A stretch of DNA of 64,000 nucleotides from NCBI GenBank assembly GCA_029856155.1, contig JAHQWL010000040.1, positions 125,032-189,031 on the forward strand. The letters are read 5' to 3'. This DNA is from Promethearchaeia archaeon (GTDB lineage: Archaea > Asgardarchaeota > Lokiarchaeia > Sigyniarchaeales > SOKP01). Made by a program: the position numbers and the translations under genes. Positions 1,666 to 1,865 of the stretch are shown piece by piece (the stretch's first letter is position 1; every line of letters starts with the position of its first letter). A model generated the notes under the pieces. It was not told where the DNA came from. It made no database searches and saw nothing but the letters and a program-made list of their open reading frames with translations.

Positions 1666-1865
1666 ATGGCTGATTATAAAAGAGTAAAATGTCCTAAATG
1701 CGGAAATGATAATCCACGGATGCTTCATGAAGAACCGGATAAGAGTATTGTACTTTACTATAGTATAAGTATCGCTTTTTCAGCATACTGCTAACGCAGG
1801 GTACTCCGGTTTATGCAAAAAACATGAAGTGTGGAGGATGCGGAAATCTTTTTAAAAAGGAGTAA
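1666..1865 (+). CDS. Intron-split zinc-ribbon protein, join(1666..1766,1796..1865), 56 aa
   Basis: Spliced product MADYKRVKCPKCGNDNPRMLHEEPDKSIVLYYSMQGTPVYAKNMKCGGCGNLFKKE with two CxxCG knuckles; unspliced frame stops at TAA 1792 and the second knuckle is in another frame. Confidence 0.8.
1767..1795 (+). other. 29-nt BHB-type mRNA intron
   Basis: Central helix TAGT(1761-64)/GCTA(1790-93), bulges AT^A and AC^G, inner stem AGTAT/ATACT plus GCT/AGC; ligation gives AT|G (Met) in frame. Confidence 0.8.

Follow-up and report, generated by a model that had tools for sequence, protein, structure and literature searches.

Archaeal protein genes are annotated as intron-free, and the locus described here raises the question of how a small conserved protein is encoded when its two halves lie in different reading frames. 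The 64-kb stretch of DNA that we analysed (the window) belongs to a 4.1-Mb genome with relatives labelled Promethearchaeota/Lokiarchaeia. Between a gene for an AroK-type shikimate kinase with a P-loop (1077-1607, forward strand; Pfam SKI) and a GH57 gene, the ORF finder made a single call, a 42-aa ORF at 1666-1794, and this stub is all of the gene that is visible to annotation. The unspliced frame runs from an ATG at 1666 to a TAA at 1792-1794 and contains a first CxxC pair (1690-1701), and a second pair (1830-1841) is encoded in a different frame. Deletion of the 29 nucleotides at 1767-1795 joins AT and G to a new Met codon and opens a 56-aa ORF with both CxxC pairs and a TAA stop at 1863-1865. 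On the forward strand, the gene comprises exon 1 (1666-1766), which ends in the AT of the split codon, the insert with its in-frame TAA (1767-1795), and exon 2 (1796-1865), which contributes the G of the Met codon and continues with QGTPVY. A first-pass annotation of this DNA had read the insert as an intron with a BHB fold; its coordinates, the CxxC pairs in different frames, the fold, the AT|G codon and the 56-aa product all hold.

We regard 1767-1795 as a spliceosome-independent pre-mRNA intron that would be cut by EndA and ligated by RtcB to restore the frame, a reading to which we assign a probability of roughly 0.93. The product is a stand-alone 'Loki Zn domain' (hereafter the Zn gene and its protein). 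A TATA-like AT run is found at 1609-1620, about 46 nt 5' of the ATG, and T-rich tracts follow the stop at 1886-1920, which suggests that the Zn gene may have a separate transcript. Sequence upstream of the gene is conserved among relatives. A sigma-70 promoter scan, a model ill-suited to archaea, remained at chance level, and Rfam gave no match in window 1400-2200. A group I or II catalytic RNA core is absent, as the insert is a 29-nt hairpin and far below ribozyme-core length. Genes for aroD and adenylate kinase lie near the shikimate kinase (5001-6435), and a tRNA-Sec gene is located at 28174-28266 on the minus strand.

Homologues with and without the insert

A DNA search of relatives yielded 29 usable Zn genes. 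A 29-nt insert is present at the same site (site 1) in 24 of them and is exactly absent in 5/29. Shikimate kinase adjoins the Zn gene in 86 of 90 partly redundant loci and thereby marks orthology. A search across the class gave protein alignments interrupted at residue 35-38 for 33 genomes of the window's genus and unbroken ones for about a dozen others in that genus and for most other genera. Uninterrupted homologues reading YSMQG had been proposed beforehand as a test of splicing. Dozens were found, and all 35 distinct intact Promethearchaeota proteins read Y(Y/F)SMQG(T/A)PVY. Homologues that keep the insert as coding sequence, named at the same time as evidence against an intron, did not appear: every unspliced frame checked among the insert-bearing genes meets a stop inside the insert, and in no homologue checked was the site-1 insert retained as coding sequence.

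The boundaries of the insert were also determined with the RNA motif ignored. We scored deletions of 1-60 nt (n=4,008) against intact homologues alone, and the top-scoring deletion was exactly 1767-1795, which equals the EndA cut sites of the BHB. In all 11 named loci, this motif-free optimum was unique and coincided with the cuts expected from the BHB. Equally good motifs (4/4 central pairs, inner stem of at least 5, 29 nt) occur at 0.034% of window positions. The loose BHB shape is frequent, with 444,632 motifs genome-wide, and because a bare BHB-like shape is so common, the case for an intron rests on the homologues. A de novo genome scan that combined BHB shape with a coding score was abandoned since it was swamped by gene junctions; with a folding filter added, 19 candidates were left, with a slight excess at 29-30 nt.

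Selection was compared between the exons of 22 intron-bearing genes. Exon 2, which lies behind a stop when the RNA is unspliced, has a dN/dS of 0.066, similar to the 0.074 of exon 1, and this indicates that exon 2 is translated and that the gene is not a pseudogene. The intron itself has diverged less (0.22) than exon third positions (0.37). A second intact copy of the Zn gene was not found in the genome. The DNA pattern of the spliced junction was unmatched in JGI contigs, and the protein-database matches nearest to the predicted spliced products were not exact; those that we looked up come from intron-free genomic contigs, and neither outcome speaks for or against splicing. As this small, well-conserved gene is interrupted by an insert with the shape of archaeal tRNA introns, and relatives contain inserts of this type at four different positions in it (see below), its mRNA almost certainly needs splicing.

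RNA structure and covariation

The RNA at 1750-1805 folds as a BHB, which is its lowest-energy structure. A central helix of 4 bp is formed by TAGT of exon 1 (1761-1764) and GCTA of the intron (1790-1793). It is bordered by the 3-nt bulges ATA (1765-1767) and ACG (1794-1796), with predicted cuts after 1766 and 1795. The inner hairpin (1768-1789) is built from the stems 1768-1772/1785-1789 and 1774-1776/1782-1784, and an exon-exon helix pairs 1750-1756 with 1798-1804. The offset position of this outer helix and the relaxed motif had been noted in the first-pass annotation and are seen here. Of the two flanking helices, the inner one is regular and the exon helix is offset, so the motif belongs to class HBh' and not to the full hBHBh'. 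Because a gap separates the exon-side helix from the 3' bulge, an EndA of relaxed specificity would be needed.

In a gap-free alignment of the 24 intron-bearing genes, in which shared ancestry inflates covariation and codon counts, 96.6% of all cells were paired compared to 28-49% in slid controls (central helix 100%, inner helix 98.8%, offset exon helix 91.7%), double changes were found in six of the seven inner-helix pairs, and eight pairs in all had changed on both sides. The window allele has a T-A pair in the central helix where most relatives have C-G. Compensating changes in the offset exon helix fall on third positions of Val and Gly codons. A Ser codon contributes to the central helix; it reads AGY in 24/24 intron-bearing genes and in 6/24 genes of other genera, a count likewise raised by common descent.

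In longer sequence context, a rival hairpin of the window allele comes within 0.1-2.4 kcal/mol of the BHB and the probability of the central helix falls to 0.02-0.36. Among the 24 sequences, the BHB pairing probability was at least 0.68 in 18, and the rival fold appeared in the window allele and about 6/24 relatives. It may act as a switch or may have arisen from the modelling.

Splicing machinery and alternative explanations

The genome encodes two EndA subunits (two PF01974 genes) and RtcB, and one of the EndA subunits has the catalytic residues Tyr, His and Lys where they are expected. Cut positions fit the geometry of EndA at all four insertion sites known from the Zn gene and at both sites of rpl11 (see below). 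We infer from sequence that the Zn gene is transcribed and that its RNA is cleaved and ligated. In the folded transcript, two 3-nt bulges would flank the 4-bp central helix; EndA, a tRNA splicing endonuclease of two subunits, would cut after the second base of each bulge (1766 and 1795), and RtcB would join the exons. The new AUG codon would then bring exon 2 into frame and allow translation of the 56-aa (CxxC)2 Loki Zn-domain protein, while unspliced RNA would yield the 42-aa stub without the second CxxC pair.

The insert might instead be removed from the RNA by another nuclease (hairpin-recognising, IRE1-like or unknown) or, in a fraction of the population, from the DNA itself. The relaxed exon-side helix would be compatible with this, as would an apical loop resembling AU(U/C)UC that is common to several of the introns and is not a known need of EndA. 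We consider such a route very improbable, since the cut positions at all of these sites fall where EndA would be expected to act, after base two of 3-nt bulges that flank a 4-bp helix, and the genes for EndA and RtcB are both in the genome.

Ribosomes are able to bypass hairpins in uncut RNA, as in T4 gene 60 and the mitochondrial byps elements. The insert resembles byps elements in its size, its hairpin and its internal stop, but translational bypassing deserves little credence here: matching take-off and landing codons occurred in 0/24 genes at six offsets, cleavage at the BHB positions is required to create the invariant Met codon, and the conserved 4-bp helix between exon and intron would be left unexplained. 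Programmed frameshifting, the simpler variant of this idea, would leave about 10 extra residues in the protein. That the gene is a pseudogene disrupted by a small mobile element (a MITE or a target-site scar), or an assembly error, can be set aside almost completely. Short direct repeats do flank some inserts at other sites in relatives, but no direct repeat occurs at site 1, the same insert is found in more than 30 genomes, both exons are preserved at a dN/dS of about 0.07, the intron has accumulated fewer changes than exon third positions, and there is no second intact gene copy.

Probable introns in rpl11 and in other genes of the genome

Splicing by EndA and RtcB may extend to further genes. 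In rpl11, two introns on the forward strand flank a 21-nt exon, the first of 37 nt (10923-10959; central TGGG/CCCA) and the second of 36 nt (10981-11016; central GCCT/AGGT), both with a 4/4 central helix, and deleting both gives a normal uL11. Relatives contain both introns, either one or neither, so that all four combinations exist, and rpl11 is uninterrupted in five genomes of other families. The two introns are best read as gained or lost independently. A different insert is found near the second rpl11 site in L058, and G005 and G064 show a match with 28 extra bases. An exact 11-mer is common to the Zn-gene intron (1769-1779) and the second rpl11 intron (10991-11001), and the Zn intron of the nearest relative, G005, differs from it at two bases. 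Chance or conversion may have produced this identity.

We also performed a motif-free census of the window's genome, with 2.3 Mb of DNA from another family as the reference (1.98 Mb of G050, 0.34 Mb of G044 and 20 kb of G055), which covered about 1,175 genes with matches. The first versions were noisy due to antisense ORFs and natural in-frame indels. The final census revealed six confident frame-breaking inserts, all of 29-36 nt, and as it is insensitive to short exons, the true number is higher than six. A strict BHB was present in four of the six and in none of 15 in-frame inserts free of stops; among shifted positions, 1.9% passed. A fifth insert has three of four central pairs and a 9-bp stem. 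Going by their motifs, we take the genes with a strict BHB to be those for a proteasome alpha subunit, AMP phosphorylase, rpl11 (intron 2) and one more enzyme. The reverse census, for inserts in the reference part, found none. The expectation of the first-pass annotation that such introns recur in this genome was thus supported by rpl11 and the census genes; as to its suggestion that they may be common, the census points to a modest number and not to most genes.

Outside the window, frame-breaking inserts of 29-31 nt were seen in conserved genes of this genome (G000) on contigs C1 (~10073), C44 (~81451), C98 (~57025), C40 (~2044) and C34 (minus strand). The C40 insert has a GCT-ATYTC-AGC apex in common with the Zn-gene intron family, and the C34 insert is without a clear BHB.

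Further insertion sites and probable intron history

A tree of aroK together with part of exon 1 confines the site-1 intron to one genus and requires two changes. It was probably gained once within this genus, and one clade may later have lost it precisely. Among relatives, the Zn gene is an intron hotspot with BHB inserts at four sites within nine codons. At site 2, G016 (L025) contains a second intron of 31 nt, 17 nt downstream of the first and after an identical CAGTAT. The two introns agree at 24/29 bases, a value reached in 0/2,000 shuffles, so that the second resembles a copy of the first, and deleting both restores the full Zn protein. Site 3 follows a conserved Tyr codon and is occupied by inserts of 30-33 nt in G086 and G146 (another genus), in G017 and in two metagenome contigs; the G017 insert has three of four central pairs and a 6-bp inner stem. 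Inserts of 31-36 nt at site 4 were found in four contigs, with a central CTAG/CTAG helix and four exon pairs.

Several of the site-3 and site-4 inserts sit in imperfect direct repeats (9-12/14 bases) around the palindromes CTAG or GTAC. Duplication of a palindromic tetramer makes the central helix of a BHB at once. These few cases hint at two routes by which an intron may be born, copying and duplication of a palindromic site. We lean slightly towards the broader view that one Lokiarchaeia family contains actively spreading, spliceosome-free mRNA micro-introns, which would propagate by copying into a matching target and by duplication of a short site (the palindromic tetramers CTAG and GTAC). 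If this is true, the closest lineage to eukaryotes would need tRNA-type splicing for many of its genes, some of them essential. BHB inserts in imperfect direct repeats around CTAG or GTAC were observed in L270, L272, L273, L274 and L276. The 36-nt insert of L270 is in frame and stop-free, and it is annotated as part of a 68-aa protein.

Relation to known introns

The closest known system is the pre-mRNA BHB intron of cbf5 in Desulfurococcales and Sulfolobales, which measures 16-44 bp and has relaxed motifs (Yokobori 2009, PMC2738675; citing Watanabe 2002 and Yoshinari 2006). Its splicing was demonstrated with cDNA and EndA assays, and as of 2009 no other archaeal gene had been confirmed (PMC2738675); cbf5 was also the only confirmed case of an archaeal protein-gene intron in the literature that we searched. 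Like the cbf5 intron, the Zn-gene insert is short, lies in coding sequence, has a BHB-like and often relaxed motif whose cut sites lie between the second and third bulge bases, interrupts a conserved codon and shows lineage-specific presence. On every feature that could be tested, it belongs to the same kind of EndA-spliced pre-mRNA intron. It differs in phylum and gene, and splicing was shown experimentally for cbf5, whereas for the Zn gene it is deduced. New in comparison to cbf5 are the scale and the dynamics: several unrelated genes are affected, one of them at four or more positions within a span of nine codons, and there are hints that introns were gained recently.

For Asgard tRNA genes, repeated gains of non-canonical introns and a two-subunit EndA in most genomes have been described, with the route of arrival left open (bioRxiv 10.64898/2026.10.13.758758). 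These introns are of similar size and include the motif class HBh', which is scored as canonical there. They concern tRNA genes only and the word mRNA is absent from the preprint, whereas the target is an mRNA in the Zn gene, the data for which hint at two arrival routes, copying and target duplication. Splicing of XBP1/HAC1 by IRE1 and RtcB (PMC13149111) is likewise protein-catalysed and spliceosome-free and removes a short frame-shifting mRNA intron, but it uses two stem-loops and IRE1 instead of a BHB and is regulated by ER stress. Our literature search, which covered few subscription journals, retrieved nothing on Asgard mRNA introns.

Should our reading be correct, several Asgard mRNAs are spliced by the machinery that processes tRNAs, and automated gene prediction overlooks the respective genes or cuts them short. 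With four intron positions in 57 codons, exact presence and absence and possible birth intermediates, the Zn gene would make intron gain and loss in archaea, the question left open by the 2026 tRNA-intron preprint (bioRxiv 10.64898/2026.10.13.758758), directly testable. It is also relevant to the question of whether mRNA introns were already tolerated by the lineage that supplied the host cell of eukaryotes; a link to spliceosomal introns does not follow from the Zn-gene data.

The Zn-domain protein

The 56-aa product has the arrangement (CxxC)2 with four invariant Cys residues and presumably binds zinc. Its structure model (pLDDT 84.5) shows a zinc ribbon with a long beta-hairpin and YY at the turn, and the intron falls at the tip of this hairpin (model turn, residues 34-38). 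No Pfam family scored above the cut-off, fold searches returned weak zinc-ribbon matches only (best Z 3.5) with no Foldseek match at E 0.001, and the matches in the Atlas are unnamed. A Loki-specific Zn domain, for which zinc binding was only predicted, has been described at the C-terminus of the gelsolin 2DGel and in stand-alone small proteins (Akil 2022, PMC9433394). The protein studied here corresponds to this domain in its (CxxC)2 pattern, its extended loop with a Tyr tip, its restriction to Loki and its occurrence at C-termini or alone; in contrast to our findings, that paper describes no intron.

The genome contains seven Zn-domain paralogues, mostly as C-terminal domains. One ends a 335-aa protein with two gelsolin repeats (G000 C14, L255:640-1647; E 3e-10 to the C-terminus), which we take to be the Loki 2DGel on the basis of comparisons within the genome. 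As a guess with less than even odds, the Zn protein acts as a small protein-interaction module, perhaps tied to the actin system, since the same domain ends the Loki gelsolin 2DGel. Other Zn-domain paralogues end coiled-coil and proline-rich proteins. Two more candidate interruptions were seen in the family, a paralogue match with an internal TAA (G000:C75:114022-114156; L259) and an orthologue of the Zn gene that matches residues 1-44 only (G030:C79:20119-20247).
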